From: Spirochaetota bacterium
Lineage (GTDB): Bacteria; Spirochaetota; UBA4802; JAFGDQ01
Reading direction: 5' to 3'
Assembly (NCBI GenBank): GCA_043803405.1
Contig: JAZDKB010000010.1
Location: 1 to 64,000 of the forward strand
DNA: 64,000 nucleotides
The notes below the pieces were generated by a model, which did no database searches, was not told where the DNA came from, and worked only from the letters and a program-made list of their open reading frames with translations. Below are positions 7,284 through 42,547 of this stretch, in pieces. Positions within the stretch are counted from its first letter, which is position 1; each line of letters begins with the position of its first letter. A program made the position numbers and the translations under genes.

Positions 7284-7384
7284 TATAATTTCTCCTGTAA
7301 TTTTTATGATAATCATTAAAGTCAATTATGATTTAATGATTATTAAATCCCACTTTACTGACTTAAAACTATATTTAATTGACA

Positions 7385-8876: not shown

Positions 8877-9866
8877 TTAAATGAATAATTCATTATAGCG
8901 GATCATTTTATTAAAATCATGCAATGATTTCAACGCAGTATTTTCCGTTGGAATGCCCATCTCTTCAACTGCCGCAATCGGATTCAATCCTCCCGCGACT
9001 ATCATCCCTACTCTGCCTTCCGAAACAGGAATACCCAGCAGTGATTGTCCCGGCTTCCCTATCATTAAAATACCGTCTAACCCGATTTCACTCATTCTTT
9101 TTTTTATTTTTAAAGCTTTGTTCAGTGCTATTGACGGAAATTCCCGAAAGCCGGCGCCTATCCTCCCGTTGCCTGTGTTTACAACATCTCTGACGCTTGT
9201 CATGCGACCTTTTATAAATATTTCTAAAGGATCAATGGATGTACCATCATAATTTATAATATCAATAAATCGAAGGGGCTCTCCTTTTGAAATTTCCAGG
9301 ACACCACCAAATCTTGATGTTGTATAAATACCTTTGTTAAAAAATATTCCGTTTATCGTAACGCTGCAAACAGTCCCAATAGTTACTTTCCCGGGACTGG
9401 ATTTTAAATCAAGCGGAGTATTTTCTTCATAATTTACCGTCACATATTTTCCCATCCCCAGGCCTTTATCAAAGACGGACTTAATCTCGGAATAAGCTTC
9501 TTTAAAATTTTCTAACGGTAAAGTTGTATGGTTTAGTATAATTCTTCCGCTTAATTTTTGAATGGAAAAATTCATTTGATATGTAAGTGTATCAATTTTT
9601 GAAGCTATAAAGCCTACCTTTTCAAAAGTAAATGCCGAGTTTAATTCATTAATCCCTTTTTCGGTTACAATGCGTCCTTTTTTTCCAAGGTTCTTTGTTA
9701 AGCCATCCTGATCCATTTTTTGAAGATAATAACGTATTGTGCGTTCGCTTAGATCATGGCCCAATTCCTGCAATTTAAGAGAAATTAACGAACTGCCAAC
9801 AGGCTGACTATGATCATTCAGTATCTGGAGAATTGAGACGATTTTTCTTTCTGAAATTTTGCTCAT
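8877..9866 (-). CDS. nrpR: NrpR-family nitrogen repressor (wHTH + single NRD/DUF128 domain)
   Basis: SERTIRYYLQKMD wHTH; TVCSVTINGI, GTSIDPLEIF and GGLNPIAA motifs. Confidence 0.85.
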   Translation of the reverse strand: MSKISERKIVSILQILNDHSQPVGSSLISLKLQELGHDLSERTIRYYLQKMDQDGLTKNLGKKGRIVTEKGINELNSAFTFEKVGFIASKIDTLTYQMNFSIQKLSGRIILNHTTLPLENFKEAYSEIKSVFDKGLGMGKYVTVNYEENTPLDLKSSPGKVTIGTVCSVTINGIFFNKGIYTTSRFGGVLEISKGEPLRFIDIINYDGTSIDPLEIFIKGRMTSVRDVVNTGNGRIGAGFREFPSIALNKALKIKKRMSEIGLDGILMIGKPGQSLLGIPVSEGRVGMIVAGGLNPIAAVEEMGIPTENTALKSLHDFNKMIRYNELFI

Positions 9867-9963
9867 TGTCTTTGGAATTATTTTTAATAATCTTATAATT
9901 TATAATATTGAAATGAAAAACAAGACTAAAAATACTGATAAGCTTAGCTTGTCAACTATTTTA

Positions 9964-10126
9964 ACGGCAATTTTTGCCGTATAAAAATAGAAATTTGATA
10001 TCAATTGTGTCAATCATGTAAATAATCATCAATAAAATCTCATTTTTTATCACTTTTTATGTATTTTATTGAAAAATTTTACTTGCTTAAATCTATTAAC
10101 GAAATATTAATGGCAACCACTTGCCA
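9964..10126. promoter_or_regulatory. Two GGCAA...TTGCC palindromes in the nrpR/mvhD divergent region (candidate NrpR operators)
   Basis: ACGGCAA-TTT-TTGCCGT (9964-9980) and TGGCAA-CCAC-TTGCCA (10111-10126). Confidence 0.5.
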
Positions 10127-10175
10127 AAAGGCTCAATGCTTTATTTTACTATATCGTTTTGGCAATAACAAAGGA

Positions 10176-10598
10176 ATGAATAATAAACAATTAAAAATAT
10201 ATATATTTTGTTGTTCTAACAGCTTTAACATTGAAGAAATTGAATATTCTTTGTCAATGCAGAATAAAAATTGCTTTAAAATTATAGGTTTGCCGTGTTC
10301 GGGGAAGGTTGACCTGCTGTATCTTATCAAGGCTTTTGAAACAGGCGCGGATGGAACAATCCTTTTAACCTGCAAAGAAGGCGAGTGCAGTTATCTTGCC
10401 GGAAATTTCAGGGCAAAAAAACGCGCTGATGCAGTTGACGAATTTCTTGAAGAAATAGGTATGGGAAAAGGTAGGATGCAGGTTATTCAACTTAGGGAAG
10501 GACATAAAGAAGAGATATTCCGTGAAATTGAATATTTTGCCAATAACTTAAAAAGCCAATCCTGCACTAATATTGATTCTGCTTTAAAGCAATCCTAA
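10176..10598 (+). CDS. mvhD: MvhD/FlpD-family [2Fe-2S] protein (copy 1)
   Basis: FCC, PCSGKVD, AFETGADG, CKEGEC..GN; homology begins at Met40 of the ORF (10176). Confidence 0.8.
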   Translation: MNNKQLKIYIFCCSNSFNIEEIEYSLSMQNKNCFKIIGLPCSGKVDLLYLIKAFETGADGTILLTCKEGECSYLAGNFRAKKRADAVDEFLEEIGMGKGRMQVIQLREGHKEEIFREIEYFANNLKSQSCTNIDSALKQS

Positions 10599-10635
10599 AA
10601 GATGTATCAAGCTGGCATATCCAGGAGATCATAAT

Positions 10636-11538
10636 ATGAGTAATGAGAGTAAATTCGCAAACGCTATAAAAAGCGGCGAATTCATAATTACAGCGGAATA
10701 CCTTCCGGAAGCTGTTGCTGCTGATTTAGAAATTAAAACAGCAGCAAGCTTTTTTAAAGGAGTAACCGCAGTTAATGTAAGCGATAATCCGTTCGGCGTT
10801 GTGATGTCGAGCCTTGCCGCATCTGTTGCATTATCCAAATCCGGCATTGAACCTGTATACCAGATCGTGACACGCGACAGGAACCGCATAGCGCTGCAGT
10901 CCGACCTTCTCGGCGCTGCATCTCTCGGGATAAAAAACGTATTATGCATTTCCGGTTATCACCAGACCCTGGGTGTCAGCCCGGAATCGGCTAACGTTTA
11001 CGATCTTGACTCGATTCAGCTTATTGCCGGTATTGAGAAGATGAAGAAAGGCGAACTTTTAAACGGGACAAAAATTAAAGGGACATTCTCAATGCTTGTT
11101 GGCGCGGCTGCAAATCCCTATATGAAACCGCTTGTATTAAATATTATACGTCTTGTTAAAAAAGTGGAAGCAGGCGCGGCATTCATACAAACCAATGCCG
11201 TATTTGATATAGAAGGGTTCAACCAGTGGCTTGATGCGGCGCGTAATGAAGGAATTACTGAGAAGACAGCTATCCTTGCAGGCGTGCTTCCTCTCGATAG
11301 CGCAAAAGAAGCTGAAGAATTAAAAAACAAATATACGGAAATTGTTATACCAGATGCCGTGATCGACAGGTTAAAATCTGCCGGTAACGAAGATGCCCAG
11401 AAGAAAGAAGGGCTGGCAATCTGCTCTGAAGTTATAAAAAGAATAAAAGGTACCAAAGGGGTTAAAGGAATTCATATTCATTCGGGCGGCAAAGAGAAGA
11501 TTATTGCAGGCCTTCTTTCTGCTGCGGGATTAAATTAG
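10636..11538 (+). CDS. metF: Methylenetetrahydrofolate reductase-like flavoprotein (MetF family, divergent active site)
   Basis: ITAE, VSDNP, TRDRNRIALQSDLLGA, KKVEAGA, GIH; SGYH and QTN replace the usual GD and TQ. Confidence 0.8.
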   Translation: MSNESKFANAIKSGEFIITAEYLPEAVAADLEIKTAASFFKGVTAVNVSDNPFGVVMSSLAASVALSKSGIEPVYQIVTRDRNRIALQSDLLGAASLGIKNVLCISGYHQTLGVSPESANVYDLDSIQLIAGIEKMKKGELLNGTKIKGTFSMLVGAAANPYMKPLVLNIIRLVKKVEAGAAFIQTNAVFDIEGFNQWLDAARNEGITEKTAILAGVLPLDSAKEAEELKNKYTEIVIPDAVIDRLKSAGNEDAQKKEGLAICSEVIKRIKGTKGVKGIHIHSGGKEKIIAGLLSAAGLN

Positions 11539-11604
11539 AGTCGAAGGACATTAAGATAGTCTTCCGACCGTATGATCATAAGTCAAAAAGTATTTAAAAG
11601 TTTT

Positions 11605-11695
11605 GCCACGGAGTCACGGAGGCTCAGAGTTTTTATTTAGTTTTTAACTTAAAAATAATTATTTTAATATCTCTGTGTCTCTGTGTTTTTGTGGC
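11605..11695. repeat. REP-like imperfect inverted repeat built from 8-mer units
   Basis: GCCACGGAG-TCACGGAG-GCTCAGAG ... CTCTGTGT-CTCTGTGT-TTTTGTGGC flanking an AT-rich loop. Confidence 0.6.
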
Positions 11696-11760
11696 GTATT
11701 TAATAAGGATTTATCGGGTCATAACATTAGTTACTAATAAAGAATAATATTAAAAAACAA

Positions 11761-13164
11761 ATGCCTAAAAAATATCACATAGAAACAAAGCCCATACTTC
11801 CGAGACGGCCGCGCGTCGGCCAGTTCGGAATTGTCGACTGGCGGGAAGATTGCGCCAGATGTCATAATTGTGTAAAAAAATTATGTATTTACGATCGTCA
11901 TAGACAGGAAGCTGAATATATTCGCAAGCTTGATAATGTCGATACGCTTTTTTTTGAATGCATGGGCTGTTTTTTTTGCGTGCAGGAATGCACTAAAAAT
12001 CTTCTGCGCTTATCCGTAAACCCGATGCATGAAAGACTGGGAAACAGGTACTGGACGCCGAATATTATCCGGACAACATGGCTGCAGGCAGAGACCGCAA
12101 AAATTCCGGTTTCGGGCGCTGGTTACCGCGGTAAATTTACAGGCCCCGGCTTTGACTCAATGTGGACGGATATGTCAGAGATCGTGCGTCCGACCCGCGA
12201 CGGTATACACGGCCGAGAATACATCAGCACGGCAACAGATATCGGAAGAAAGCTGATGTTCCTCTCCATTGACGGAGAGAAAGCTTCTACTGTTATGCCG
12301 CCTCTCGCGATTGTGCAGATGCCGATGATTATTGACATGATGCCGGAAGAATATAGTCTGCCTGTATTAGAAGAAATTATTATAACAGCGGCAGCCAGGA
12401 CAGATTTAATCGCAATAATAGATTCATCAAAATGGCCTTTAAATATTAAAAATATGGAAAAGGTTCTGCCATATTTGGCTTTTTATTTAAATCCTGCCGC
12501 GCCTCCTGTCCCTGCTGAAATATTGAAAAACACAAGACTTGTGGAAATTCCTGATTCTGAAAATATAAAAGTTCAGATAAAAAATATAAAAGATATTTGT
12601 CCGGATATAGTTATTTCAATACGGGTAAAATTAGACTCAAACGGGATTAAACGCGCTATTGAGCTTGGGACGCAGGATAATATTGAAGCAATTCATATAG
12701 TTGCAGATTTAAATGGCGATCAAATCGGCACAAAGAATCCTATTTTCCTGAAAGATATGATACGCGATATACACACAAAGCTGATAGACAGCGGGAAGAG
12801 AGACCAATTGACGCTGATTGCGAGCGGAGGCATAGCTTTACCGGAACACATGGCTAAAGCAATTATATGCGGGGCCGATCTTGTAGCAATTGAACTCCCG
12901 CTTCTGATAGCTCTTGAATGTCATCTATGCAGCAAATGCGAACGGGGTTCTTTTTGCCCGGTTAAGCTGGAAGATGTCGATTCCGATTACGCTGCAGGAA
13001 GAATGGTAAATCTGATAAGCGCATGGCATGACCAGCTGATAGAACTTATGGGTGCAATGGGAATTCGCGATGCGAGGCGCTTGCGTGGAGATGTCGGCCG
13101 CTGTATGTTTTTTGAACAACTTGAGGAGGAATCATTTGGCAGAATTTTTGGAACAAGGCTTTAA
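11761..13164 (+). CDS. Glutamate synthase-related FMN-domain protein with N-terminal ferredoxin (degenerate paralogue)
   Basis: CARCHNC, CMGCFFCVQEC, LIASGGI..KAIICGAD, CHLCSKC..CP; lacks the MSFG, GEGG and QGAKPG motifs. Confidence 0.8.
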   Translation: MPKKYHIETKPILPRRPRVGQFGIVDWREDCARCHNCVKKLCIYDRHRQEAEYIRKLDNVDTLFFECMGCFFCVQECTKNLLRLSVNPMHERLGNRYWTPNIIRTTWLQAETAKIPVSGAGYRGKFTGPGFDSMWTDMSEIVRPTRDGIHGREYISTATDIGRKLMFLSIDGEKASTVMPPLAIVQMPMIIDMMPEEYSLPVLEEIIITAAARTDLIAIIDSSKWPLNIKNMEKVLPYLAFYLNPAAPPVPAEILKNTRLVEIPDSENIKVQIKNIKDICPDIVISIRVKLDSNGIKRAIELGTQDNIEAIHIVADLNGDQIGTKNPIFLKDMIRDIHTKLIDSGKRDQLTLIASGGIALPEHMAKAIICGADLVAIELPLLIALECHLCSKCERGSFCPVKLEDVDSDYAAGRMVNLISAWHDQLIELMGAMGIRDARRLRGDVGRCMFFEQLEEESFGRIFGTRL

Positions 13165-14719
13165 ACTTGAAGACATCCTGCCCGAAAACACGCTGAAAAC
13201 GCGTGTTCCGCAGACAATAGTTGAGCGTAAAGTGAATCCGGCTCCTTCGCGATACAGGAATGAGATAGCTAGATATTTAATTATGCGGGATGATAATCTA
13301 TGCATAAGATGCGGTAAATGCGCGGAAATTTGTCCCAAAGGCGTTCATGTTTTAAAAAAGGGCTATAAATATTTTGCTGAACCTGAAAGCCATTTATGTA
13401 TTGGCCCTATTTGCGAAAAAAAATATAAAGATAAATACTGTATAGCCGCGTGTCCGAAAGCCGCACTGCGTATTGCTGAAAATCCTATGATGAAATTACT
13501 AGGCGATCCACGCTGGTCTGCAAATATTATACTTGCCACATGGAAGATGGCCGAAACAGGCGAAGTGCCTTCGGAAGATTATGAATATGAATACGGAAAC
13601 TCCGGCGGAGGTTTTGACCGTCTTAGATTTAAGTTCCCGGAAAGACCTCCTGTTGAGATTAAAAAAGAAGAAGTGGATACCGGCATTGAACTCAATCGCC
13701 GTAATGACAGCCGTGTAAAAATTAAGATAGATGTTCCATGGTACGGCGGCGGCATGTCGTTCGGATCGGTCAGCAATACAGTGCAGCTCTCGAAGGCACG
13801 GGCGGCTGTCGCATGGAATACGCTTACCTGCACGGGCGAGGGCGGGTATATGGAACGTATGCGGCCGTATGATGATCACGTTATTACCCAGGTAGCCACA
13901 GGTTTATTCGGTGTGCGCGAAGAAACCATTCAACGGGTTCCAGTTATTGAATTTAAATATGCACAAGGGGCAAAACCCGGCCTTGGCGGTCACCTTCTGG
14001 GTGATAAAAACACTCCTGCTGTTGCCAAAATGCGAGAGACCGTGCTCGGAATATCGCTTTTTTCTCCTTTCCCGTTTCACAGCGTTTATTCGATTGAAGA
14101 CCACATGAAACACATAGACTGGATTAAGCACATTAACAGGCGCGCGTTAATATCCACAAAGGTTTCGACTCCGAACGATGTAGATATGGTCGCAGTAGGC
14201 AGTTATTTCGCAGGCACTCATATTGTGCACATTGACGGCGGTTACGGCGGTACCGGCGCGGCCCCGGACATAGCAAAAAAAAATATAGCGATGCCGATTG
14301 AATACGCTATTCCCAAGGTGCACAGATTTCTCGAAGCGGAAGGAGCAAGGGATACTATTACTTTAATCGCAAGCGGCGGATTAAGAAATATATATGATAT
14401 AGCAAAAGCAATCGCCCTTGGCGCTGACGGCGTTGTAATCGGAACATCCGAACTTGTAGCACTCGGGTGTGTAAGATGCGGACGATGCGAAAGCGGCAGG
14501 GGATGCCCCCGCAGCATAGCCACCACAGACAAGGTGCTTGCGCCCATGATCGATCTTGAATGGGGAACTCAAAGATTAATAAATTTATACAATGCATGGC
14601 GGGAAGATCTCGTAAAAATTCTTCAGCGGTTCGGGATGAGAAGCATAAGTGAATTGCGTGGACGCACAGATCTGCTGATGCATCTCGATTACACAAATGA
14701 TGTGGAGCATAAAGCGTGA
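13136..14719 (+). CDS. Glutamate synthase FMN subunit (archaeal GltB2-like) with 4Fe-4S domain
   Basis: CIRCGKCAEICP, GGMSFG, TGEGG, QVATG, AQGAKPGLGGHL, DGGYGGTGAA, CVRCGRC..CP; TTG start 6 nt after AGGAGG. Confidence 0.85.
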   Translation: MAEFLEQGFKLEDILPENTLKTRVPQTIVERKVNPAPSRYRNEIARYLIMRDDNLCIRCGKCAEICPKGVHVLKKGYKYFAEPESHLCIGPICEKKYKDKYCIAACPKAALRIAENPMMKLLGDPRWSANIILATWKMAETGEVPSEDYEYEYGNSGGGFDRLRFKFPERPPVEIKKEEVDTGIELNRRNDSRVKIKIDVPWYGGGMSFGSVSNTVQLSKARAAVAWNTLTCTGEGGYMERMRPYDDHVITQVATGLFGVREETIQRVPVIEFKYAQGAKPGLGGHLLGDKNTPAVAKMRETVLGISLFSPFPFHSVYSIEDHMKHIDWIKHINRRALISTKVSTPNDVDMVAVGSYFAGTHIVHIDGGYGGTGAAPDIAKKNIAMPIEYAIPKVHRFLEAEGARDTITLIASGGLRNIYDIAKAIALGADGVVIGTSELVALGCVRCGRCESGRGCPRSIATTDKVLAPMIDLEWGTQRLINLYNAWREDLVKILQRFGMRSISELRGRTDLLMHLDYTNDVEHKA

Positions 14720-17379
14720 AAAGCAATTATATACAGCATATACTGAATTCCAGAAGGTCATTGGCAGACGGGTCCGATTTTTCTATTACAATGAGAAAGA
14801 AGGAAGAAGAAGGCGGATGCGGCGTTGTAGGCTTTTGCTGCTCCGAACCTGTTCGGGGTAAGCATATATACGAGCCTTCAAAACAAATGCACAACAGGGG
14901 AAACGGAAAGGGTGGCGGAATTGCAGCTGTCGGATTTCTGCCGGAAGAACTGGGCGTAAGCCGAGAAGTGCTGGATGAATATTTTATGCTGCATATAGCG
15001 TATCTGGACCCGAAAGTAAGAGAGGATCTTGAGAAAAAATATATTTATCCGTATTTCGAAGTTAAATCATCATCAAAACTGGACAATGTTGACGATTGGA
15101 AGAGCGTACCCGGCCTTGAAGTAAGGCCGCCCGATGTATGGCGTTATTTTGTCCGCGTCAAATCCGATGTCCTGGATTCCTTTTCCAAAAAGAACGGGCT
15201 CGACAAACTTGAACGCCAGGATGTGGAAGATGAATTCATATTCCAGAACAGTTTTAAACTGAACAATGAATATTACGCTTCACTTGGCGAGCAAAAAGCG
15301 TTCGTACTTTCTCACGGAAAAGATTTAATGATCCTTAAAGTTGTCGGATTCGCGGAGGCAATAGTAAAGTATTACAAGATTGAAGATCTTCGCGCTCATG
15401 TATGGATTGCTCATCAGCGGTTCCCGACTAAAGGACGCGTCTGGCATCCGGGCGGAGCACATCCTTTTGCCGGCATCAATATGGCGCTTGTGCATAACGG
15501 CGACTTCGCGAATTATCATTCAGTTTCCGAATATCTTAAACAGAGAAATATTTATCCGCAGTTTTTAACGGACACGGAAGTATCGGCTTTACTGTTCGAC
15601 CTCCTGGACAGGACTTACGGCTATCCGCTTGAATACATTATTGAAGCCCTGGCGCCCACGACAGAACTTGACTTTGACAGGCTCCCGGCCGATAAGCAGG
15701 AGATTTACCGCGCCATACAGGCCAGTCACATTCATGGCTCGCCGGATGGGCCATGGTTTTTTATTATCGCAAGAAATATCCCTCAAAAAAAACAGTTACA
15801 GCTTATGGGTATAACCGATACTGCAATGCTCCGGCCCCAGGTATTCGCCTTTCATGACGGTGAAGTGCAGGTCGGAATTATAGGCTCGGAAAAGCAGGCT
15901 ATTGACGCCACCTTTCACAGTCTTTCAAAAGACGACAAGCGGATTTGCCCGATAGCAGACAGTTATTGGAACGCCCGAGGGGGAAGCCATACGGACGGCG
16001 GTTCGTTTATTTTTAATCTTGAAAAAAATTCAAACGGGAAAATCCGTCTTACATGTACGGATAAATTCGGCAAGATGGTTCCGGTTCCCGGCGGACAAGC
16101 GTATGATTTTACAAATGATAAGTCCGGCTCTTATAAATTGCAGGATGGCATTCAAAAGAGTTTAAAAGAAAATTTTGAACTAGGAGCTGATCATCTATTT
16201 GATTATATTCAAAAAAATATTCCTGACTGGAGTTATGATGATATTAAAGCTGTTTGCGAATTGATGGCCGGCAAAGCTGTGGGTACTGACGGGACAGTAA
16301 CAGCCATCAAAACTTTTACAATGCTTAATGACAGAAGGTATTCCACAGGCAATAAAAAACGCAGTCACATTCTTCATATACTGCGCAGTGAATTACACAA
16401 ACTTTTCGATAATATTCCACTCCTTAATGCAAATGTTTCCGCAAAGAACGCCTTCCGTCTAATAGATTGGGACACCCGTAAGGATCTGAGAACGCCTGTA
16501 CAGGATGAAGAAACACTTGTAATTAATGCAGCAGGTTTCCAGCCTGAAGGAAATGATTGCGATGCTACTTTGCTTCTTGATGCTTATATGAAAGGCTGGA
16601 AACGATTTATCAGTTACGGCTGTACAGGGCAAAGATATATCGGTTGCGGATTAGGTCCGGATACGGACGATGTAACTATTGACGTGTACGACAGTTCCGG
16701 GGATTATCTTGCTTCGGGAATTGACGGGCTGACAATAAACGTCCATAACAACGCGCAGGATCAGCTGGCGCAGATAATAAAGCGCGGGAAACTGGTAGTA
16801 CATGGCGATGTTGGACAGACATTTATGTACGGAGCAAAGGGCGGCGAGGTTTACATAATGGGGAATGCTGCAGGACGCCCGCTTATTAACTCGGTTGGAA
16901 AACCCAAAGTTGTTATAAACGGAACATGCCTTGACTTTCTCGGAGAATCATTCATGGCAGGTGACCCACTGAACGGCGGCGGTTTTGTTATTTTAAACGG
17001 TATTAAGTTTACGGATAAAGGCGAATTTGCCGAGCTGAATGAACCGTATCCCGGAAGCAATATTTTTTCACTTGCCTCGGGCGGCGCTATTTATGTCCGT
17101 GATCCTTATAAAAAAATTATCGACCAGCAACTCAACGGCGGCGTGCTTAAAACGTTAAGAAAAAAAGAGTGGGAGTTAATGCTGCCCTATCTTGAAGAGA
17201 ACGAACGATTATTCAACATAAAGATAAAAGATTTACTCACGGTAAACGGTGAAGTTAAAGATCCGCGAAATGTATATCGTAAGGTCGTGCCTCATGTTAC
17301 CGGCGCACTCGGATCAAAAACATACGAGGATGACGCAGAAGAAGTAATAGAAGAGGAAATTATTTATAAAGCAGGGTAA
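14716..17379 (+). CDS. Ntn glutamine amidotransferase + GXGXG beta-helix fusion (GltB1+GltB3-like)
   Basis: EEEGG-CGVVG nucleophile Cys, HQRFPT, HPF, HNGD, DTE, DGP; C-terminal GQRYIGCG and GDVGQTFMYGAKGG repeats. Confidence 0.85.
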   Translation: MKSNYIQHILNSRRSLADGSDFSITMRKKEEEGGCGVVGFCCSEPVRGKHIYEPSKQMHNRGNGKGGGIAAVGFLPEELGVSREVLDEYFMLHIAYLDPKVREDLEKKYIYPYFEVKSSSKLDNVDDWKSVPGLEVRPPDVWRYFVRVKSDVLDSFSKKNGLDKLERQDVEDEFIFQNSFKLNNEYYASLGEQKAFVLSHGKDLMILKVVGFAEAIVKYYKIEDLRAHVWIAHQRFPTKGRVWHPGGAHPFAGINMALVHNGDFANYHSVSEYLKQRNIYPQFLTDTEVSALLFDLLDRTYGYPLEYIIEALAPTTELDFDRLPADKQEIYRAIQASHIHGSPDGPWFFIIARNIPQKKQLQLMGITDTAMLRPQVFAFHDGEVQVGIIGSEKQAIDATFHSLSKDDKRICPIADSYWNARGGSHTDGGSFIFNLEKNSNGKIRLTCTDKFGKMVPVPGGQAYDFTNDKSGSYKLQDGIQKSLKENFELGADHLFDYIQKNIPDWSYDDIKAVCELMAGKAVGTDGTVTAIKTFTMLNDRRYSTGNKKRSHILHILRSELHKLFDNIPLLNANVSAKNAFRLIDWDTRKDLRTPVQDEETLVINAAGFQPEGNDCDATLLLDAYMKGWKRFISYGCTGQRYIGCGLGPDTDDVTIDVYDSSGDYLASGIDGLTINVHNNAQDQLAQIIKRGKLVVHGDVGQTFMYGAKGGEVYIMGNAAGRPLINSVGKPKVVINGTCLDFLGESFMAGDPLNGGGFVILNGIKFTDKGEFAELNEPYPGSNIFSLASGGAIYVRDPYKKIIDQQLNGGVLKTLRKKEWELMLPYLEENERLFNIKIKDLLTVNGEVKDPRNVYRKVVPHVTGALGSKTYEDDAEEVIEEEIIYKAG

Positions 17380-17380
17380 A

Positions 17381-17502
17381 TCCCCCTTCCCCCCTTTAAA
17401 AAGAAAAGGGGGGAAAAATAAAAATTAACACCGCGCGGAGCTTCCCCTTCAAACCCTTAATAAATGGGGTGGCTAACAAAGCGAGCCGGGGGACTCTGCT
17501 GC
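17381..17502 (+). repeat. Intergenic hairpins (C-run/G-run REP-like stem plus branched stem)
   Basis: TTCCCCCCTTT / AAAGGGGGGAA stem (17387-17415), then GCGGAGcTTCCCC ... GGGGACTCTGC enclosing two small stems. Confidence 0.5.
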
Positions 17503-17542
17503 TTTCGTTTAAACAGGTTCTTAGCAGACATGAGGAGGAATA

Positions 17543-18100
17543 GTGTCTTTAAAAATAAAGAAAGGAAGCGCAGCGAAAAGCTTAAAAAGCGCTGTTGAAG
17601 AGATATCAGGCGTAGATATCAGTGTATGCCTGCAGTGCAAAAAATGCTCCAGCGGTTGTCCGGTAACTGAGTTTTCCGGATCTTCTCCATCGGAAATATT
17701 AAGAAGACTGCAACTTAACGCAGGGGAAGAACTGCTTGAGAGCGGTATTATCTGGCTTTGCGCATCATGCGAGACATGCTACGCGCGTTGTCCTATGAAA
17801 ATCGATATGGCTGCAGTTATGGACGCGCTGCGCAGTATTGCGGTAAAAACGCGCGCACCAAAACCGGAAGGCGATGCTCCGCTCTTCAATAATATATTGC
17901 TAAGAATGATCAGGTTTTTCGGCAGATCTTATGATATTGCCGCTATGGCACTTTACAAGGCAGGTACAGGATCTTTTTTGAAAGATACTGACAAGCTCCC
18001 GACTATCTTAAAAAAAGGCAAGATAGCTATTTTACCTCCACGCGGCGGGGATATAGAGACCGTGAGACGAATATTTAAAAAAATTGAGCAAGACAGATGA
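17543..18100 (+). CDS. hdrC: Heterodisulfide reductase subunit C-like
   Basis: CLQCKKCSSGCP and CASCETCYARCP; GTG start after GAGGAGG. Confidence 0.88.
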   Translation: MSLKIKKGSAAKSLKSAVEEISGVDISVCLQCKKCSSGCPVTEFSGSSPSEILRRLQLNAGEELLESGIIWLCASCETCYARCPMKIDMAAVMDALRSIAVKTRAPKPEGDAPLFNNILLRMIRFFGRSYDIAAMALYKAGTGSFLKDTDKLPTILKKGKIAILPPRGGDIETVRRIFKKIEQDR

Positions 18101-18987
18101 TATCTAAATCAAAACTAAAATACGCTTATTATCCGGGATGTTCGGCTGAGTCTACGGCACGCGATCAGCATTCTTCCGCAATGGCTGTGGCGCAGGCATT
18201 GGGTGTTGAGATGACTGAGATAAAGGGCTGGACCTGCTGCGGTTCTACGCCGGGCCACCAGACCGACAGGATTTTAGCAGCGTCTCTTGCTGCCGCAAAT
18301 CTTGCTAAGGCGCGCGATCTGGGACTTGATATGATTGTAAACTGCGCTGCCTGCTACAGCAGAATGAAAAGCGCAAATTTTGAAATAGCAAATGACATTG
18401 AAATAAGAAGAAAAGTTGAAGATGCGATAGGGAAAAATTATGACGGTTCTGTAAAGGTAAAACATTTTATTGAAGTGCTTTTGAATGATATTGGAATCGA
18501 TGCTATAAAGAACACAGTTACCAATCCAATCGCAGGGCTTAAGGTTGCTCCATATTACGGATGTTTGCTCGTTCGTCCTCCTGATGTAACTAAGTTTGAT
18601 AACCCCGAAAACCCGGTTTTCATGGACAGGCTGGTAAAAGCCATGGGCGGCGAGAGCATCGACTGGCCTCACAAGGTAGAGTGTTGCGGCGCAGGGCTCA
18701 CCCTGACAAGAGTTGATGTTGTGTTAAAGCTTACGGAATCGATTCTGCGTATGGCTAAAGAATCCGGCGCCGATTGCATCATAGTAGCGTGCCCTATGTG
18801 CCAGATGAACCTGGATATGAGACAACTTGATATCGCAAAAGAGACAGGGAAAAAATATAATATGCCGGTTTTATATATATCTCAGCTTCTGGGTTTGTCA
18901 TTCGGCATTAATGAAAAAGAACTCGGCTTGAATAAACTAATGATATCACCTTCCGCTGTTTTAAATATAACTAAAGGCGAAAGATAA
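18097..18987 (+). CDS. hdrB: Heterodisulfide reductase subunit B-like
   Basis: Two CCG domains: YYPGC, WTCCG, CAAC, YYGC, ECCG, ACPMC. Confidence 0.92.
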   Translation: MISKSKLKYAYYPGCSAESTARDQHSSAMAVAQALGVEMTEIKGWTCCGSTPGHQTDRILAASLAAANLAKARDLGLDMIVNCAACYSRMKSANFEIANDIEIRRKVEDAIGKNYDGSVKVKHFIEVLLNDIGIDAIKNTVTNPIAGLKVAPYYGCLLVRPPDVTKFDNPENPVFMDRLVKAMGGESIDWPHKVECCGAGLTLTRVDVVLKLTESILRMAKESGADCIIVACPMCQMNLDMRQLDIAKETGKKYNMPVLYISQLLGLSFGINEKELGLNKLMISPSAVLNITKGER

Positions 18988-18996
18988 TAATAAATT

Positions 18997-21900
18997 ATGA
19001 AAAAAAATAAAACTAAAATGACCGGATCTGTGCTCGTGCAGGGCGGAGGAATTGCCGGTGTCCAGGCAGCACTCGATCTTGCCAATTCCGGCTTTAAAGT
19101 TCAGCTTATTGAACGCTCTGCCACTATCGGCGGTATGATGTCGCATCTGGATAAGACATTCCCTACGGGCGACTGCGCAACATGTATTGTGTCGCCTAAA
19201 CTGGTTGAGTGCGCCAGGAACCTCAACATAGAAATACATACTCTTTCCGAGATTGAAACAATTGAAGGTGAGCCTGGTAATTTTACTGTAAATATAAAAA
19301 AGTCACCAGGGTACATAAATGAAAAAATCTGCAATGACTGCGGCGACTGTACAAAAGTTTGTCCTGTTGAAATAACCGACAAATTTAACCGCGACCTGGG
19401 AACAAGAAAGGCAGTACAAAAATATTATCCGCAGGCAATACCGAATAAGCCTTATATGCTTAAGCTGGGGCATGCTCCTTGCAAGATTGCATGTCCGGCA
19501 AATATTAATGTTCAGGGATATATTCAGCTTATTAAAAAAAAGGAATATATAAAAGCTGTTAATCTTATAAGGGAAAGAAACCCTCTTTCCGCTATATGCG
19601 GCCGGGTTTGTACCCATCCATGTGAAACAGCCTGTACACGAAGTAAGGTTGACTCGGCAGTGGCAATCAGGCAATTGAAGCGGTTTGCCTCTGATAAAGA
19701 GATGGAAATGATTGAGTCCGGGGCGATTTCTCTTCCTGATGAGAAGATTCCTTCACCTGACGCGAAGAAGGTAGCGATAGTCGGGGCAGGGCCTTCGGGT
19801 GTTACAGCCGCCCAGGATCTTGCGGATCGCGGTTATGCTGTGACCGTATATGAAGCGCGTTCTGCTGCAGGCGGCATGTTGCGCTGGGGGATTCCTGATT
19901 ACCGTCTCCCTGAAAGAATTCTGGATTACGAAATTGAACTTATCCGGCGAAAGGGAGTCACTTTTGTTTTTAACTGCACAATAGGGAAAGATATTTCCAT
20001 TAAAAAGCTGCGTGAAGAAAATGAAGCAGTATTTATAGGTATAGGAACACAAAAAAGTGCTGCACTTGGGATTAAGGGTGAAGATCTTGCCGGTGTTGAA
20101 TACGGTCTTGATTTTTTATTCAGGGTTAATTCGAAAGACAGCAAGCCTTCTGTAAAAGGACATGTGGTAATAGTCGGCGGCGGTGATGTGGCAATGGATG
20201 CTGCGAGTTGTGCGCTTCGGCTCGGCGCGGAGACTGTTACTATCGTCTATAGAAGGAGCGCGGCAGAAATTCCGGCTTCACAGGAAGAACTGGATAATGT
20301 AAAAGAAGAGGGTGCAAGGTTCCGGTTCCTGACTGATCCGGTTGAGTTTACCGGCAACGGAAACGGTCGACTTAAAAAGATGAAGTGCATAAAGATGGAG
20401 CTTGGGGAACCGGATGAATCCGGCAGACGAAGGCCTGTTCCTGTTAAAGGTTCTGAGTTTGAAATAGAAGTTGATACAGTTATAGTTGCCATAGGTAGCC
20501 AGGCGGAAACGATCCTTACGGATTATATCCCTGTTAATAAACGGGCCAATATTATTACTGACAATTTCGGATTAACTGAAAAAGACGGCATTTTCGCTGG
20601 TGGCGATGTCGTTACTGGTCCTGCGACTGTAATAGAAGCCGTAGCAGCAGGCAAGCTTGCAGCTGAATCGATTGATCTTTACATACGCCGCGGCGAAGCG
20701 CGCGATGTTAAACGTTTCAAAGACACTCTGAAACCTGTTCCGGAGAACCTCCTTCCTGCAACTAATACCATTGAAAAAAAATCCCGTGCTAAAGCCTGCA
20801 AATTGCCTGTAGAGAAAAGAAATAATAATTTTAATGAGATAGAAACTGCCTTTACGGAGGATAACGCGGTTGCGGAATCCGAACGATGTTTAAACTGCGC
20901 CTTATGTTCCGAATGTATGGAATGTGTCGCTGCCTGCGAAAAGAATGCCATTGATCATGATATGAAAGCTCAAAATACTGAGCTGGAAGTCGGGTCTGTC
21001 ATTCTTGCTCCGGGATTTAATGAGTTCGATGCCGAACTCAAAGGCGAATACGGATTTAACCGTTATACCAATGTGCTTACCAGCGTCCAGTTTGAACGTA
21101 TGCTTTCAGCCACTGGCCCTTATGGCGGGCATGTGCTGCGCAGGGATGATCAAAAAGATGCGAAGCGGATAGCATGGATACAATGTGTCGGTTCCCGCGA
21201 CTCAAACTGCGGAAACGAATATTGCTCGTCCATCTGCTGTATGGCCTCCACAAAACAGGCCATGATCGCCAGGGAACATGTCAATGGCCTGGAAGCCGCG
21301 ATATTTTATATGGATATCAGGGCATTCGGCAAAGATTTCGATCAGTATTATGAACGCGCAAGGAATACTGACGGTATTGAATATATAAGAAGTATCCCAT
21401 CCCGTATTATAGAGATGCCGGGAACAAAAGACCTGCGTTTGCGATATCTTAATGATAAATTCGAGAACGAGGAGCGGGATTTCGATCTTGTTGTGCTTTC
21501 CGTAGGCCTCGACCCGAAGAATATTTCCAGGTCAATCTCGCATTTAGGTATCGAGCTGAATGATTTCGGTTTTTGCGCGACTGACAGGTTTGATCCGCTC
21601 AGGACATCACGTCCGGGTGTGTTTGTTGCGGGAGTTTTCCAGGAACCGAAGGATATACCGGAAACCGTTACGCAGGCCAGCGCTGCCGCTTCCATGAGCA
21701 TGGAACTTTTATCGCTGGCGCGCAATACGCTTATAAGCAAAAAAATATTTCCGACTGAGCATGATATCACGGACGAAGCACCGAGAATCGGAGTGTTTGT
21801 ATGCCATTGCGGAATTAATATAGCTTCGGTTGTAGATGTTGAAAAAGTTACCGAAACCATATCCAACGATCCGGATGTTGTTTTTGCAAATCACACAATG

Positions 21901-23430
21901 TATACATGTTCGGATTCAAGTCTGTCGGAAATAAAAAAAGCTATAATCGAAAACAGACTTAACCGCGTTGTTGTTGCGTCATGCACGCCAAGAACCCATG
22001 AACCTCTGTTCCGCGAAACTTTGCAGGAGGCCGGGCTTAATCCGTATCTTTTTGACCTGGCAAACATCAGGGATCAATGCTCATGGGTTCATTCATCCGA
22101 ACCTGAAGCAGCTACAGAAAAGGCTATAGATCTTGTACGCATGTCAATCGCAAGGGCCCGCCTGCTGACTCCTCTTGAAGGAGAAGTTCTCGCAGTAAAT
22201 CAAAGCGGCCTTGTTATCGGGGGCGGTCTTTCCGGGATGACGGCAGCACTTTCTCTTGCAGAACAGGGTTTCAAAATTCATCTGATTGAACGCACCGGTT
22301 CTCTGGGCGGGAACCTGCTGAAAATATACAGAACGCTGGAACATGATGACATTTCGGAATTAACCGCAAATTTGATAAAACGCGTAGAGAACCATCCGAG
22401 CATAAGTCTTTACATGTCAACGGATGTCGCGTCTGTTTCAGGACATGTCGGAAAATTTCTTGTTAAGCTTTCAATTAACGGAAAGAACGTCGAGGTTCAA
22501 TGCGGCGCAATAATTGTAGCAACAGGCGCCGAACAGGCGGAAACCGCAGAATACCTGAATGGGAAATCCGATAATGTTATTACACAGATTGAGCTGGAAA
22601 AGCGTTTACAAAAAGGAGAATTTTCCAAAAATAATTCTAATGTTGTGATGATACAGTGTGTCGGCTCACGCAATGATGAACACGCCTATTGCAGCAGGGT
22701 ATGCTGCTCCATGGCTGTTCAAAACGCTTTAAGTATAAAGGAAAAATCACCGGATACAAACGTATTTGTTCTATACCGCGATATGAGAACATATGGTTTC
22801 CGCGAGTCATATTATAAAAAAGCGCGTGAAGCCGGCGTTGTCTTTATCCGCTACGACCGGAATAATCCTCCTGCAGTTTCGGATGACAATGGTATTGTTG
22901 TTAAATTAAAAAGTCCTGATTTTCCTGAAGAACTTGAGATAGAAACGGACTTAGTAGCGCTTAGCACAGGAATAAATGCTGTGGATAACAAGCGTCTCTC
23001 CGATATGCTTAAAGTGCCTCTTAACGCGGACGGTTATTATGTTGAGGCTCATTTAAAGCTTCGTCCGGTAGATTTTACTACAGAAGGAATTTTTTTATGC
23101 GGGCTTGCCCATTCCCCGAAATTTATAGACGAGAATATTTCGCAGGCACGCGCAGCTGCATCGCGCGCAGCAACAATACTGTCAAAGACCCAGCTGCAGG
23201 CCGGCGCCCAGGTTTCTTTTGTAGATCAGAAAAAATGTATTTCGTGCATGACCTGCCTGAAATCCTGCCCGTACGGTGCGCCGTTTATCAACGTGGATCA
23301 CAAGGCGGAGATAGTTGCGGCAAAATGCATGGGATGCGGCATCTGCGCTTCGGAATGCCCGGCGCGGGCAATACAACTAAGCCATTTTATGGCGAAACAG
23401 ATTATCACAATGATCGATGCAATACTATGA
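18997..23430 (+). CDS. hdrA: HdrL-type large flavoprotein: two HdrA FAD modules with an inserted GltD-like NAD(P)H module
   Basis: GGGIAG and DKTFPT; APCKIACP, CGRVCTHPCE, GAGPSG, GGGDVAMD..YRRS; two CVGSR..CS..CC motifs; VCHCG; C-terminal 2x[4Fe-4S]. Confidence 0.9.
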   Translation: MKKNKTKMTGSVLVQGGGIAGVQAALDLANSGFKVQLIERSATIGGMMSHLDKTFPTGDCATCIVSPKLVECARNLNIEIHTLSEIETIEGEPGNFTVNIKKSPGYINEKICNDCGDCTKVCPVEITDKFNRDLGTRKAVQKYYPQAIPNKPYMLKLGHAPCKIACPANINVQGYIQLIKKKEYIKAVNLIRERNPLSAICGRVCTHPCETACTRSKVDSAVAIRQLKRFASDKEMEMIESGAISLPDEKIPSPDAKKVAIVGAGPSGVTAAQDLADRGYAVTVYEARSAAGGMLRWGIPDYRLPERILDYEIELIRRKGVTFVFNCTIGKDISIKKLREENEAVFIGIGTQKSAALGIKGEDLAGVEYGLDFLFRVNSKDSKPSVKGHVVIVGGGDVAMDAASCALRLGAETVTIVYRRSAAEIPASQEELDNVKEEGARFRFLTDPVEFTGNGNGRLKKMKCIKMELGEPDESGRRRPVPVKGSEFEIEVDTVIVAIGSQAETILTDYIPVNKRANIITDNFGLTEKDGIFAGGDVVTGPATVIEAVAAGKLAAESIDLYIRRGEARDVKRFKDTLKPVPENLLPATNTIEKKSRAKACKLPVEKRNNNFNEIETAFTEDNAVAESERCLNCALCSECMECVAACEKNAIDHDMKAQNTELEVGSVILAPGFNEFDAELKGEYGFNRYTNVLTSVQFERMLSATGPYGGHVLRRDDQKDAKRIAWIQCVGSRDSNCGNEYCSSICCMASTKQAMIAREHVNGLEAAIFYMDIRAFGKDFDQYYERARNTDGIEYIRSIPSRIIEMPGTKDLRLRYLNDKFENEERDFDLVVLSVGLDPKNISRSISHLGIELNDFGFCATDRFDPLRTSRPGVFVAGVFQEPKDIPETVTQASAAASMSMELLSLARNTLISKKIFPTEHDITDEAPRIGVFVCHCGINIASVVDVEKVTETISNDPDVVFANHTMYTCSDSSLSEIKKAIIENRLNRVVVASCTPRTHEPLFRETLQEAGLNPYLFDLANIRDQCSWVHSSEPEAATEKAIDLVRMSIARARLLTPLEGEVLAVNQSGLVIGGGLSGMTAALSLAEQGFKIHLIERTGSLGGNLLKIYRTLEHDDISELTANLIKRVENHPSISLYMSTDVASVSGHVGKFLVKLSINGKNVEVQCGAIIVATGAEQAETAEYLNGKSDNVITQIELEKRLQKGEFSKNNSNVVMIQCVGSRNDEHAYCSRVCCSMAVQNALSIKEKSPDTNVFVLYRDMRTYGFRESYYKKAREAGVVFIRYDRNNPPAVSDDNGIVVKLKSPDFPEELEIETDLVALSTGINAVDNKRLSDMLKVPLNADGYYVEAHLKLRPVDFTTEGIFLCGLAHSPKFIDENISQARAAASRAATILSKTQLQAGAQVSFVDQKKCISCMTCLKSCPYGAPFINVDHKAEIVAAKCMGCGICASECPARAIQLSHFMAKQIITMIDAIL

Positions 23431-23876
23431 AAACAAATAAATTTGAACCGAAAATTATAGCATTCTGCTGCCATTACTGCGCTTATGCTGCGGGAGACCT
23501 GGCAGGCTCCATGCGTCTTCAATACCCGGCGAATATACGCATTATACGCACACCATGCACAGGCAAACTTGAAGTCGAATATTTCATGAGGGCTTTCGAG
23601 AAAGGCGCCGACGGTGTGCTTATAGCTGGATGCGAGGAAGGAAGCTGTCATTTTATTGAAGGAAATTTAATGGCAAAGCGCCGCGTCAATTATTCCCGCG
23701 GACTACTGGAAGAGGCCGGGTTTGAAAAAGAGCGGATAAGAATGATCAATCTTTCGGCAGCCATGGGAAACCGTTTCGCGGAGCAGGTTCGCGACATGGT
23801 GGAAAGTATTCGCGAACTTGGCCCAAGCCCGCTTAACCGGTCCGAAAAATTGAATAAACAGGAGACATATATATGA
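23427..23876 (+). CDS. mvhD: MvhD/FlpD-family [2Fe-2S] protein (copy 2)
   Basis: FCCHYCAY, PCTGK, GCEEGSCHF; ATG overlaps the hdrL stop (ATGA). Confidence 0.92.
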   Translation: MKTNKFEPKIIAFCCHYCAYAAGDLAGSMRLQYPANIRIIRTPCTGKLEVEYFMRAFEKGADGVLIAGCEEGSCHFIEGNLMAKRRVNYSRGLLEEAGFEKERIRMINLSAAMGNRFAEQVRDMVESIRELGPSPLNRSEKLNKQETYI

Positions 23877-24541
23877 TAGTTGCGGAAAGAAAAAAAATAA
23901 ATGAACTTGTAGATATATTAAAAGGACACAAAAAAATACTGGTGCTCGGATGCGGGACATGCGTTACAGTATGTCTTGCCGGCGGCGAACGCGAAGTAAG
24001 CATTATTTCCTCAGCGCTGCGTATTGCTTCCAGGCTTAAAGGCTTAAACTTTGAAATTGAGGAGTACACAATTGAGCGTCAGTGCGACAATATATTCATA
24101 GAAGAAATAGCCGATAAAGTCGAAAGGAATGATGTTGTCCTTTCATTGGGATGCGGCGCCGGAGTTCAGGCTATTGCCGAAAGATTCCCGATGAAACCGG
24201 TTTATGCGGGACTTAATACCGCGTTTATCGGCATACTCGAAGAGAGAGCAGTCTGGGCGGAAAAGTGCGCGGCCTGCGGTGCGTGCGTTCTTCATGAATT
24301 CGGCGGCATTTGCCCTATAACACGCTGTGCAAAGCACATGCTGAACGGGCCCTGCGGCGGCTCACGCGAAGACCGCTGCGAAGTGCGTCCCGATCGGGAG
24401 TGCGCGTGGCAGCTTATTTACAAGAGGCTAAGCAATATCGGGGAACTCGACAGGTTAAAGCGCATAAGAGAGCCGAAGAACTGGAATGCAAGTCTCTCCG
24501 GCGGCAGCCGTATAATTATACGCGAAGACCACAGAATATAA
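23873..24541 (+). CDS. metV: MetV (methylene-THF reductase Fe-S/Zn subunit)
   Basis: GCGTCVTVC, ERQCD, GCGAG, CAACGAC..CPITRC..NGPCGG..CAW. Confidence 0.9.
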   Translation: MIVAERKKINELVDILKGHKKILVLGCGTCVTVCLAGGEREVSIISSALRIASRLKGLNFEIEEYTIERQCDNIFIEEIADKVERNDVVLSLGCGAGVQAIAERFPMKPVYAGLNTAFIGILEERAVWAEKCAACGACVLHEFGGICPITRCAKHMLNGPCGGSREDRCEVRPDRECAWQLIYKRLSNIGELDRLKRIREPKNWNASLSGGSRIIIREDHRI

Positions 24542-42491: not shown

Positions 42492-42547
42492 TAATTTTTT
42501 TATTCGATTTTTATTCTTCTGCCAATATATCAGTAAAACAATATGTT

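Follow-up and report, generated by a model that had tools for sequence, protein, structure and literature searches.

The operon at 10,176 to 24,541 of the window (the whole stretch of 64,000 nucleotides that was analysed) would encode a three-chain glutamate synthase together with its electron supply, a reading to which we give a probability of roughly two in three. NAD(P)H and ferredoxin are the known electron sources of glutamate synthases, and F420-linked enzymes have been proposed. Judged by its sequence, the enzyme here has an intact glutaminase site and an FMN chain with the synthase residues and Fe-S cysteines of GltB, accompanied by a degenerate twin of that chain in which only the Fe-S ligands are kept. 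A first MvhD protein (MvhD1) would dock on the twin and act as a socket for different donor modules in different genomes. In this host, NAD(P)H, probably NADPH, would be the donor and would give up its electrons at the GltD-like insert of HdrL, and electrons would pass from the HdrA flavin through MvhD2, MetV, MvhD1, and the clusters of the twin to the FMN. The operon MetF, its pterin anchors lost, may be a flavin relay or scaffold.

The gene order and co-orientation described in the initial annotation were borne out: all ten genes lie on the forward strand (Table 1), five of the nine junctions overlap, and the other gaps are 37, 222, 163, and 9 bp. Position and profile matches also confirmed a divergent nrpR, 309 bp from the operon, and a separate canonical gltBD, whose gltB starts 171 bp past the end of metV. 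Scans for promoters and terminators gave counts close to those expected by chance (36 vs. 30.2 and 15 vs. 16.6, respectively), and no sigma-54 consensus was found upstream of the operon.

Table 1. Genes of the operon and its flanks, with positions in the window
Gene or product	Position	Strand	Profile match or remark
mvhD1, divergent [2Fe-2S] MvhD	10176..10598	+	PF02662
metF, MTHFR-fold flavoprotein	10636..11538	+	PF02219
Degenerate twin of FMN subunit	11761..13164	+	PF01645, partial
Catalytic FMN subunit	13136..14719 (longest ORF from 13052)	+	PF01645, E 2.4e-85
Class II glutamine amidotransferase (GATase) fused to GXGXG beta-helix	14716..17379	+	PF13522 and PF01493
hdrC, 2x[4Fe-4S]	17543..18100	+	TIGR03290/NF041779 below cut-off; Cys conserved
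hdrB, both CCG domains	18097..18987	+	PF02754 twice; TIGR03288 below cut-off
hdrL, two HdrA halves and GltD/NfnB-like NAD(P)H module	18997..23430	+	
mvhD2, canonical HdrA-type MvhD	23427..23876	+	PF02662, E 1e-49
metV, Fe-S subunit	23873..24541	+	PF12225
nrpR, divergent nitrogen repressor (context)	8877..9866	-	PF01995 and PF08461
gltB-gltD, canonical separate enzyme (context)	24713..30666	+	NF008730 and TIGR01317 over cut-off

The core is most likely a glutamine-dependent glutamate synthase in three chains, with the putative activity glutamine + 2-oxoglutarate + 2 e- -> 2 glutamate, as its residues and domains suggest. It combines a class II glutaminase, a GltB-type FMN barrel with Fe-S cysteines, and a GXGXG domain (PF01493 over cut-off). 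The amidotransferase chain has the glutaminase motifs of GlmS intact (Cys35, HQR-PT, HPF, HNGD, and TDTE), and a leader of 34 residues, presumably removed, precedes Cys35. GGCGV was found in 77 of 81 relatives, the four misses being truncated or frameshifted. K931, K937, R957, and E978 of Azospirillum brasilense GltB, which we take to be synthase-site residues, are all kept in the FMN chain (alignment to 2vdc/1ea0), which also has an N-terminal 2x[4Fe-4S] domain and a C-terminal Fe-S cysteine motif. In the tree, this chain joins GltB and ordinary split GltB in a group with support 1.0 that leaves out MgsC/GlxD, a clade placed with two reference sequences.

The core thus defined is not a canonical GltB, given its three chains and an NF008730 score of 191 bits against a cut-off of 1047. 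It has the glutaminase, FMN/Fe-S, and GXGXG domains of the A. brasilense enzyme (1ea0/2vdc/6s6s), and a GltD-like NAD(P)H module is also present, inside HdrL. However, it is split, its amidotransferase is fused to GXGXG, and it has no PF04898; a profile search matched this central domain in no chain of the window except GltB. It adds the dead FMN-barrel twin, extra 2x[4Fe-4S] domains, and a GltD module in an HdrA fusion. Split archaeal-type GltB1/B2/B3 (e.g., L088-L091 and L124) likewise have separate amidotransferase and ferredoxin-FMN genes and, at about 33-35% identity, score highest against the FMN chain among the outside groups. Unlike the operon, they have no twin, MvhD, or nearby Hdr/Met genes, and in them GXGXG is either a chain of its own or part of one with a GltD-like reductase.

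The twin has two ferredoxin-like cysteine sets and a C-terminal cysteine cluster, with invariant cysteines, but lacks the substrate motifs and most FMN motifs. The best structural match of its model was the GltB FMN domain (6s6s 788-1179; Z 22.9, rmsd 5.5, 321 aligned), while Foldseek ranked generic FMN barrels at the top, and in other genomes the twin is fused to the intact FMN subunit. The twin is probably not the central domain of GltB because the model matched the FMN domain instead, although PF04898 is in the precomputed domain lists of most fused forms, which do not give its position within them. Whichever other donor genes are present, an mvhD lies upstream of the core in 35 of 40 loci. 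C13, C41, C66, and C71 of MvhD1 are invariant (46/46), and the DLAG motif, which MvhD1 lacks, is in none of 51 core-associated upstream MvhDs vs. 15 of 18 that follow HdrA. We propose that MvhD1 is the adaptor through which electrons enter the glutamate synthase core. The initial annotation had suggested modelling the subunits as complexes, and a twin-MvhD1 complex was predicted. Its ipSAE of 0.51 (best control 0.00) passes the calibration mark, as did 116 of 157 solved complexes and 2 of 215 mismatches. Passing scores of 0.60 or less, however, came from only 18 of the solved complexes and from both mismatches, so that a pass in this range is more often wrong than right unless the pair is likely beforehand. 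Runs agreed in at least 83% of contacts, with partner pLDDT of at least 75. The prediction lends weak support to the binding of MvhD1 to the twin.

That the glt-like and hdr/met genes stay together in other genomes is supported, and the association is more than chance. Relatives of the amidotransferase-GXGXG fusion are encoded in at least 554 of 597 GTDB candidate stretches, among those listed; in the best 80 loci, 46 have all eight marker genes and 67 have hdrB/C or metF/V. Of the 13 without these, nine were cut close to the match, and L008, L062, L067, and L070 lack them despite some flank. The donor genes vary around a nearly constant MvhD, with HdrCBL-MvhD-MetVF here and MetVF, MetV, HdrA-MetVF, or an FAD oxidase elsewhere. 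The taxon-named members of ten MetV protein clusters (up to 15 members for each) were all from MAGs or metagenomes, with no cultured carrier among them. One carrier of the complete gene set, L025, is a MAG that bears the label Desulfosudis oleivorans.

The initial annotation compared the hdr/met genes with the Moorella thermoacetica methylene-THF reductase complex, MetFV-HdrABC-MvhD. All six gene types of that enzyme are here, and as summarised in the literature its HdrA is likewise double and has a site that binds NAD(P)H (PMC8515935, PMC5736913, PMC9012536). The operon has, however, a second MvhD and three glutamate synthase genes, and it does not lie in a Wood-Ljungdahl cluster. In an alignment to E. 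coli MetF, the operon MetF keeps the catalytic Glu28 (Glu21), which is invariant in 60 of 60, but has Tyr108 for Asp120 and Asn187 for Gln183. Asp120 is invariant and catalytically essential, and both residues are pterin anchors (PMC9900621). The fold itself is well predicted (pLDDT 92.7; MTHFR structures as the structural match). Asp120 is replaced by Tyr or another non-Asp residue in 47 of 50 MetFs of Hdr-type (type A) loci, the exceptions being three Dehalococcoidia, whereas all 27 of the Hdr-less loci keep it (11/11 and 16/16), and 26 of 26 non-operon MetFs keep both anchors. Because the folate-binding Asp120 is lost here and kept in Hdr-less loci, the operon MetF is probably not a folate reductase, and the Moorella-type folate reductase reading finds no support. 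MetV, which has an NGPCGG motif, is among the most conserved operon proteins (71-85% identity in most type A loci). Its gene lies 12 kb downstream of metF here, and the two are non-adjacent in 50 of 50 hdrBC loci; the Moorella type has metV directly upstream of metF, as PMC8515935 (section 13) states. In Hdr-less loci, the sister version of the system would use Wood-Ljungdahl methyl-THF as the reductant for glutamate synthesis; ACS is present in 10 of 11 Hdr-less genomes.

Electron bifurcation, a possibility raised in the initial annotation, may occur at HdrL. Glu700 and Lys753 of HdrL correspond to Glu356 and Lys409 of HdrA in 5odc and are both present in 47 of 47 relatives; Glu356 presumably has a role in the bifurcating site. 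MvhD2 groups with HdrA-following MvhDs (support 0.973). The GltD-like insert has a Tyr-Arg-Arg motif, which we take as a sign of NADPH specificity. Bifurcation at HdrL was computed to be thermodynamically allowed, and Lys409 is the lysine at N5 of the FAD (PMC6405883). In the second HdrA half, Gln1242 stands here vs. Lys or Arg in 47 of 47 relatives. We speculate that the HdrA FAD may bifurcate, one electron going down to the high-potential iminoglutarate site and the other up to ferredoxin; even granting the rest of the mechanism, the chances of this fall somewhat short of even. The CCG cysteine motifs of HdrB are conserved in 56 relatives, as are the HdrC cysteines, and HdrBC may add a putative thiol/disulfide partner. 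With both CCG sites kept in HdrB, a disulfide could take the place of iminoglutarate as the bifurcation partner. Taken whole, an electron-bifurcating glutamate synthase in which electrons from NAD(P)H are split at HdrL so that exergonic 2-oxoglutarate amination covers the cost of reducing ferredoxin, a catalytically disarmed MetVF serves as wiring, MvhD is the socket, and a Hdr-less sister uses methyl-THF is a rather doubtful proposition.

Gene content and neighborhoods argue for ordinary nitrogen assimilation. In a sample of 201 genomes from the phylum of G053, the twin occurs in 60 and the GltB central domain in 39, with both in four genomes vs. 11.6 expected (kin are not independent). It is the lack of canonical GltB in 56 of these 60 carriers, together with glnA within 15 of 40 loci, that points to this role. 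In 23 of 55 carriers, including the single-chromosome G080 and G081, nothing but the operon gene matches the GltB model, so the earlier argument that the adjacent gltBD sets the operon apart from a housekeeping glutamate synthase is not supported. Canonical GltB is present in 25 of the 55 (and fragmented in 2 more), and the operon enzyme would therefore be redundant in many hosts. The proposed nitrogen regulation fared unevenly. Many loci have amt, glnK, glnD, nrpR, or other glutamine-using genes nearby, and nrpR adjoins the operon also in G064, G069, G074, G083, and G084, but it occurs in only 17 of 56 carriers, and no operator was recognised. The archaeal NrpR consensus, which we take to be GGAA-N6-TTCC and which may not be the motif of this bacterial host, has 120 matches genome-wide, and no such operator was seen by eye in 9867-10175. 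Feeding nitrogenase was rejected as the general purpose of the module because only 11 of 56 carriers have a nifH match that exceeds the cut-off.

An alternative is that the two modules are separate enzymes in one operon, a working Moorella-type HdrCBL-MvhD-MetVF methylene-THF reductase and a ferredoxin-dependent split glutamate synthase, co-regulated because both serve amino-acid synthesis. In Desulfobacterales, the genes run in a permuted order, hdrC-hdrB-hdrL-mvhD-metV-(mvhD)-metF, that is reminiscent of the Moorella cluster. Glu28 is invariant, and in L062, L070, and L186 the core has neither Hdr nor Met genes with it. The host has an ACS/CODH cluster and no ordinary metVF in its assembly (94% complete, with two hdrA-mvhD contigs that break just downstream), which leaves room for the operon MetF to do folate work. 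However, none of the 26 control MetFs shares the Asp120 loss of type A, all 56 carriers have another MTHFR gene (at least two family members in 55, only a canonical one in the 56th), and the extra divergent MvhD stays with the core. No ACS match was found in 21 of 43 type A genomes, one more having only a weak one, in MAGs that are incomplete. We consider two separate enzymes unlikely. A role through HdrB, coupling NAD(P)H, a cellular thiol/disulfide, and glutamate synthesis with a second partner other than ferredoxin (a disulfide reduced by bifurcation, or a thiol that serves as an additional donor), would fit the conserved HdrBC cysteines and the second acceptor of the Moorella complex, described in PMC8515935 as unknown and probably not ferredoxin. 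HdrB is nonetheless dispensable for the core: of 40 loci, 6 carry HdrA-MvhD-MetVF but showed no hdrBC, and 33 lack any Hdr gene within the retrieved stretch. The clustered neighbors include no recurrent thiol carrier gene, and this reading is quite improbable.

Could the core run in reverse or on ammonia, oxidising glutamate in a regulatory or electron-sink role in catabolism? About half of the 55 carriers also have canonical gltBD, which would allow this, as would the lack of a GlnA-type match in 12 of 56 (the model misses GS type III, and genomes are incomplete). Yet the glutaminase site is intact, the loci hold nitrogen-assimilation genes, the core largely replaces GltB in the phylum sample, and glutamate oxidation by NAD(P)+ is uphill, all of which make the reverse direction very unlikely. 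Least credible is an N-methylglutamate-type methylamine enzyme passing its methyl carbon to folate through MetF, close to the methylamine/C1-N complex of the initial annotation. MgsABC/GlxBCD does have the same three domain types in separate genes, and Hdr-less loci carry an intact MetF. MgsC, however, is set apart from the FMN chain by tree and motifs: it lacks the Lys of K931 and the Fe-S cysteines and has TGD and PDD for TGE and YSIED. Its genes adjoin gmaS and mgd/sox, of which the host shows none: no GMAS (TIGR03105) match exceeds the cut-off in any of the 56 carrier genomes, and SoxB/MgdA-like TIGR01373 has no match in the host assembly and is over cut-off in 0 of 5 genomes. As the FMN chain does not group with MgsC and no carrier has GMAS over cut-off, the methylamine reading is unsupported, and the MetF here also lacks the folate anchors.

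If the operon is a glutamate synthase with its own electron supply, the three-chain family seems to serve many sulfate reducers and syntrophs as their main glutamate synthase (60/201 genomes, one phylum sample). It is most likely undescribed: a search of main texts outside most subscription journals found no paper on the glt-like and hdr/met combination, and the available passages of related papers do not link the two modules. Should the Hdr version bifurcate, reduced ferredoxin would pay back some of the energy that nitrogen assimilation costs. This would be a new partner reaction for flavin-based bifurcation, and a defined high-potential acceptor for a MetFV-HdrABC-MvhD-like machine. In MAG studies, metF, metV, and hdr genes of such operons are likely counted as markers of the Wood-Ljungdahl pathway or sulfur-energy metabolism, and may instead serve nitrogen assimilation.

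A programmed +1 frameshift from the twin into the FMN chain (CTT-TAA at the junction in the window) was also considered. The shift site lacks conservation, and ordinary ATG, GTG, or TTG starts with a Shine-Dalgarno-like run occur across the 61 twin/FMN junctions that were read (2 more were unreadable), so the frameshift was rejected. The FMN gene most likely starts at TTG 13136 rather than at GTG 13052, as the GAGGAGG upstream suggests, a run that is formed by the last codons of the twin.

The ORF listing and family scans bore out the layout described in the initial annotation: ten co-oriented genes (mvhD1, metF*, a degenerate duplicate of the catalytic FMN subunit here called the twin, the intact FMN chain, a GATase–GXGXG fusion, hdrC, hdrB, hdrL, mvhD2, and metV), a divergent nrpR, and a canonical gltBD downstream. 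Genes overlap at five of the nine junctions. The proposed linkage of glutamate synthase-like and hdr/met genes also held in other genomes. GTDB representatives contain at least 554 relatives of the GATase–GXGXG fusion, hdrB/C or met genes are present in 67 of the 80 best loci, and all eight markers (metF, twin, FMN, GAT, hdrC, hdrB, hdrL, and metV) in 46. By record titles, the taxa include Planctomycetota, Verrucomicrobiota, Desulfobacterota, Chloroflexota, Bacteroidota, and Spirochaetota; in Desulfobacterales, these genes stand in a circularly permuted order. The fusion occurs in six of 40 host relatives; in four, among them both genomes of the host's genus, it belongs to a shorter mvhD–metV–metF version without Hdr. 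A search of the accessible literature returned no paper on this gene combination. The operon is real, widespread, and apparently undescribed, and we consider it roughly two-thirds probable (0.68) that it encodes a variant glutamate synthase with plug-in electron donors.

Judged from its residues, the three-chain core (twin, FMN chain, and GATase–GXGXG) is probably a glutamate synthase whose glutaminase and synthase sites are both intact. Alignment of the FMN chain to A. brasilense GltB covers 857–1171 (E 2e-48) and shows K931, K937, R957, E978, and the Fe–S cysteines conserved. The GATase chain conserves the glutamine-binding motifs of GlmS, and the GGCGV motif with Cys35 occurs in 77 of 81 relatives, the four misses being truncated or frameshifted sequences. 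The core would appear to work as a glutamate synthase does, but the enzyme differs from canonical GltB and is not of that type. The C1–N role suggested initially fares poorly. In a 329-column tree, the operon FMN chains group with GltB and with its ordinary split form (support 1.0), outside MgsC/GlxD, which lack several motifs and were represented by two annotated methylamine clusters; GMAS exceeded the cut-off in none of 56 carriers (genomes with the core), and the host genome had no SoxB-like match. NMGS itself is described in PMC6237917.

The twin duplicates the FMN chain, with which it shares 26% identity; it lacks the GMSFG, TGEGG, KxxQGAKPG, and YSIED motifs and retains twelve invariant Fe–S-type cysteines. 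Its predicted model (pLDDT 83) has its closest match in the FMN domain of GltB (Z 22.9, rmsd 5.5, 321 aligned), with FMN barrels following at Z about 20. Fusions of the twin to the FMN chain are frequent: there were 954 longer matches, of which the best 120 all span 958–1069 residues and four were read whole.

The electron supply of the core appears to be modular. Partner genes were counted in the phylum of genome G053, from which 201 genomes were sampled evenly; 60 of these carry the twin, and 40 of the 60 loci, chosen mainly for long contigs, were retrieved. The partner was mvhD–metV–metF without Hdr in 16 loci, mvhD alone in nine (three cut by contig ends), and hdrA–mvhD–metVF without hdrBC in six. 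In four loci (L188–L191), an FAD-linked oxidase of 614–630 aa with a 4Fe–4S dicluster domain replaces mvhD before the core, which is possibly an organic-acid-fed glutamate synthase there. Three others (L160, L169, and L171) have mvhD–metV with no metF in the stretch examined, and MetV is apparently without its usual partner; one locus has no partner gene and one is of the full window type. These counts make the window type a minority in the phylum sample (3 of 60 at ≥63% identity); the list of the top 80 loci is biased towards it.

An mvhD lies upstream of the core in 35 of these 40 loci. Core-preceding MvhDs conserve four cysteines, and the DLAG motif is found in 0 of 51 of them versus 15 of 18 HdrA-following MvhDs (the exceptions are one truncated and two divergent sequences); its absence suggests a partner other than that of the HdrA-following proteins. 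A predicted twin–MvhD1 complex, which scored 0.51 against 0.00 for the best control (runs agreeing in ≥83% of contacts, partner pLDDT ≥75), weakly hints that the twin may bind MvhD1. In calibration, 116 of the 157 true pairs reached the mark, as did 2 of the 215 mismatches; scores of ≤0.60 account for just 18 of these true pairs but for both mismatches.

A Moorella-type folate reductase had also been considered. The gene set is indeed common to the operon and the six-subunit Moorella MTHFR, as described in PMC8515935, PMC5736913, PMC7325909, PMC9012536, and PMC6085437, but the operon MetF fails at the folate site: by E. coli numbering, the window protein keeps Glu28, but Asp120 is replaced by Tyr and Gln183 by Asn. 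PMC9900621 describes this Asp as invariant and catalytically essential, and both Asp120 and Gln183 as pterin anchors. Asp120 is lost in 47 of 50 MetFs from hdrBC loci (Tyr 37, Phe 4, His 4, Thr 2) and kept in 11 of 11 from metV–metF loci without hdrBC; one truncated locus among the 62 has Tyr. The Gln183 change is not general, since 39 of the 62 retain it. Glu, Asp, and Gln are all present in each of 26 non-operon MetFs taken from these genomes. In the phylum sample, Asp is kept in 16 of 16 Hdr-less MetFs and changed in three of six HdrA-linked ones. A MetF-anchored scan of 28 loci, four repeating earlier loci, gave 19 Asp-less MetFs, every one directly before a twin, and seven Asp-keepers, none so placed (one locus was unreadable and one spurious). 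MetFs of type A loci (those with hdrBC) cluster in a single clade (0.999), near the base of which lie three sequences from Dehalococcoidia that keep Asp; those of Hdr-less operons are dispersed among ordinary MetFV. The MetF* model is still an MTHFR barrel. On this residue pattern, the folate site of MetF appears to have been lost in loci that carry Hdr. At least two MTHFR genes occur in 55 of 56 carriers, the host has a separate MetH–MetF fusion with Asp, and ACS is found in 10 of 11 Hdr-less-type genomes versus 21 of the 43 genomes of type A, one more of which has a weak match. Against this loss, ACS is present in the host, whose 94% complete assembly shows no ordinary metVF.

In the glutamate synthase we propose, electrons would pass from NAD(P)H through HdrL, MvhD2/MetV(–MetF*), MvhD1, the twin, and the FMN chain to 2-iminoglutarate. 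The HdrL sequence contains an NAD(P)H module, and the operon encodes a chain of Fe–S carriers. Window HdrL has Tyr-Arg-Arg, which presumably points to NADPH; of 47 relatives, 11 have Arg-Arg and 36 Leu-Glu. All 47 conserve Lys409 of HdrA, which binds FAD N5 according to PMC6405883; HdrL is named, in other contexts, in PMC2702500. Both CCG sites are kept in HdrB. The computed energy balance allows bifurcation to ferredoxin: with potentials of −320 mV for NAD(P) and −120 mV for 2-oxoglutarate/Glu and −14 kJ/mol for Gln hydrolysis, the direct NAD(P)H-driven reaction would release about 53 kJ/mol, and bifurcation at −400 to −500 mV would still leave 37 to 18 kJ/mol. Methyl-THF as donor (−200 mV, PMC8515935) would release 29 kJ/mol. 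We nevertheless regard an electron-bifurcating operon as rather unlikely.

The operon looks like housekeeping nitrogen assimilation. The initial annotation had argued from the adjacent gltBD that it is not simply the housekeeping GOGAT, and the wider distribution argues against this. Among 55 carriers (50 of the 80 best loci and five host relatives), the operon gene is the sole GltB match in 23, canonical GltB exceeds the cut-off in 25 and is in pieces in two more, four have one further sub-cut-off match, and one has none. Across the 201 genomes, the GltB central domain occurs in 39 and together with the twin in four, versus 11.6 expected (Fisher p 0.003, which overstates the significance because related genomes are not independent). 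Against a housekeeping role, about half of the 55 carriers also have gltBD, as does the window. In the phylum sample, glnA lies within 15 of 40 loci, with amt, glnK, glnD, nrpR, and glutamine-using enzymes also close; counts over the first 80 loci plus the loci of ten relatives were amt 7, glnA 5, and glnK 4. NrpR is found in 17 of 56 carriers, beside the operon in six. Only 11 of the 56 have a nifH; the host has three, one with an upstream sigma-54 consensus.

Features of the window and host genome (G000)
Feature	Coordinates	Strand	Remark
IS110-like transposase	2613-3923	-	presumed, by eye
Third glutamate-synthase-family gene	5643-7325	-	stand-alone FMN protein, long branch, without C-terminal Fe–S cysteines
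KaiC-like ATPase + HTH + cupin regulator	7580-8845	-	
GGCAA-N3/N4-TTGCC inverted repeat	9966-9978		nrpR–mvhD spacer
GGCAA-N3/N4-TTGCC inverted repeat	10112-10125		nrpR–mvhD spacer
Start of intact FMN gene	13136	+	TTG, probable
Acetyltransferase-like, fused double ATP-grasp (D-Ala-D-Ala ligase-like), and KamA-like radical SAM genes in a row	41958-45921	-	presumed, by eye
rnfC-, rnfD-, and rnfA-like genes	46334-49206	-	presumed, by eye; resemble an incomplete rnf set
RES-domain protein	59703-60170	-	presumed, by eye
nifH	G000 C15:23323		over cut-off
nifH	G000 C3:14536		over cut-off
nifH	G000 C20:80258		over cut-off

The two inverted repeats are possible operators; only 6 and 7 such sites occur genome-wide. 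Many loci have proteins similar to the KaiC-like regulator next to the operon, which makes it a candidate nitrogen regulator. Relatives of the stand-alone FMN protein are encoded close to the operon in L067, L084, L160, L169, L178, and L187. Two more hdrA–mvhD clusters lie by formate-dehydrogenase-like genes on host contigs C4 and C39; each is broken off by the end of its contig, both in a near-identical hdrC-like start, so the Hdr inventory of the host is incompletely assembled.
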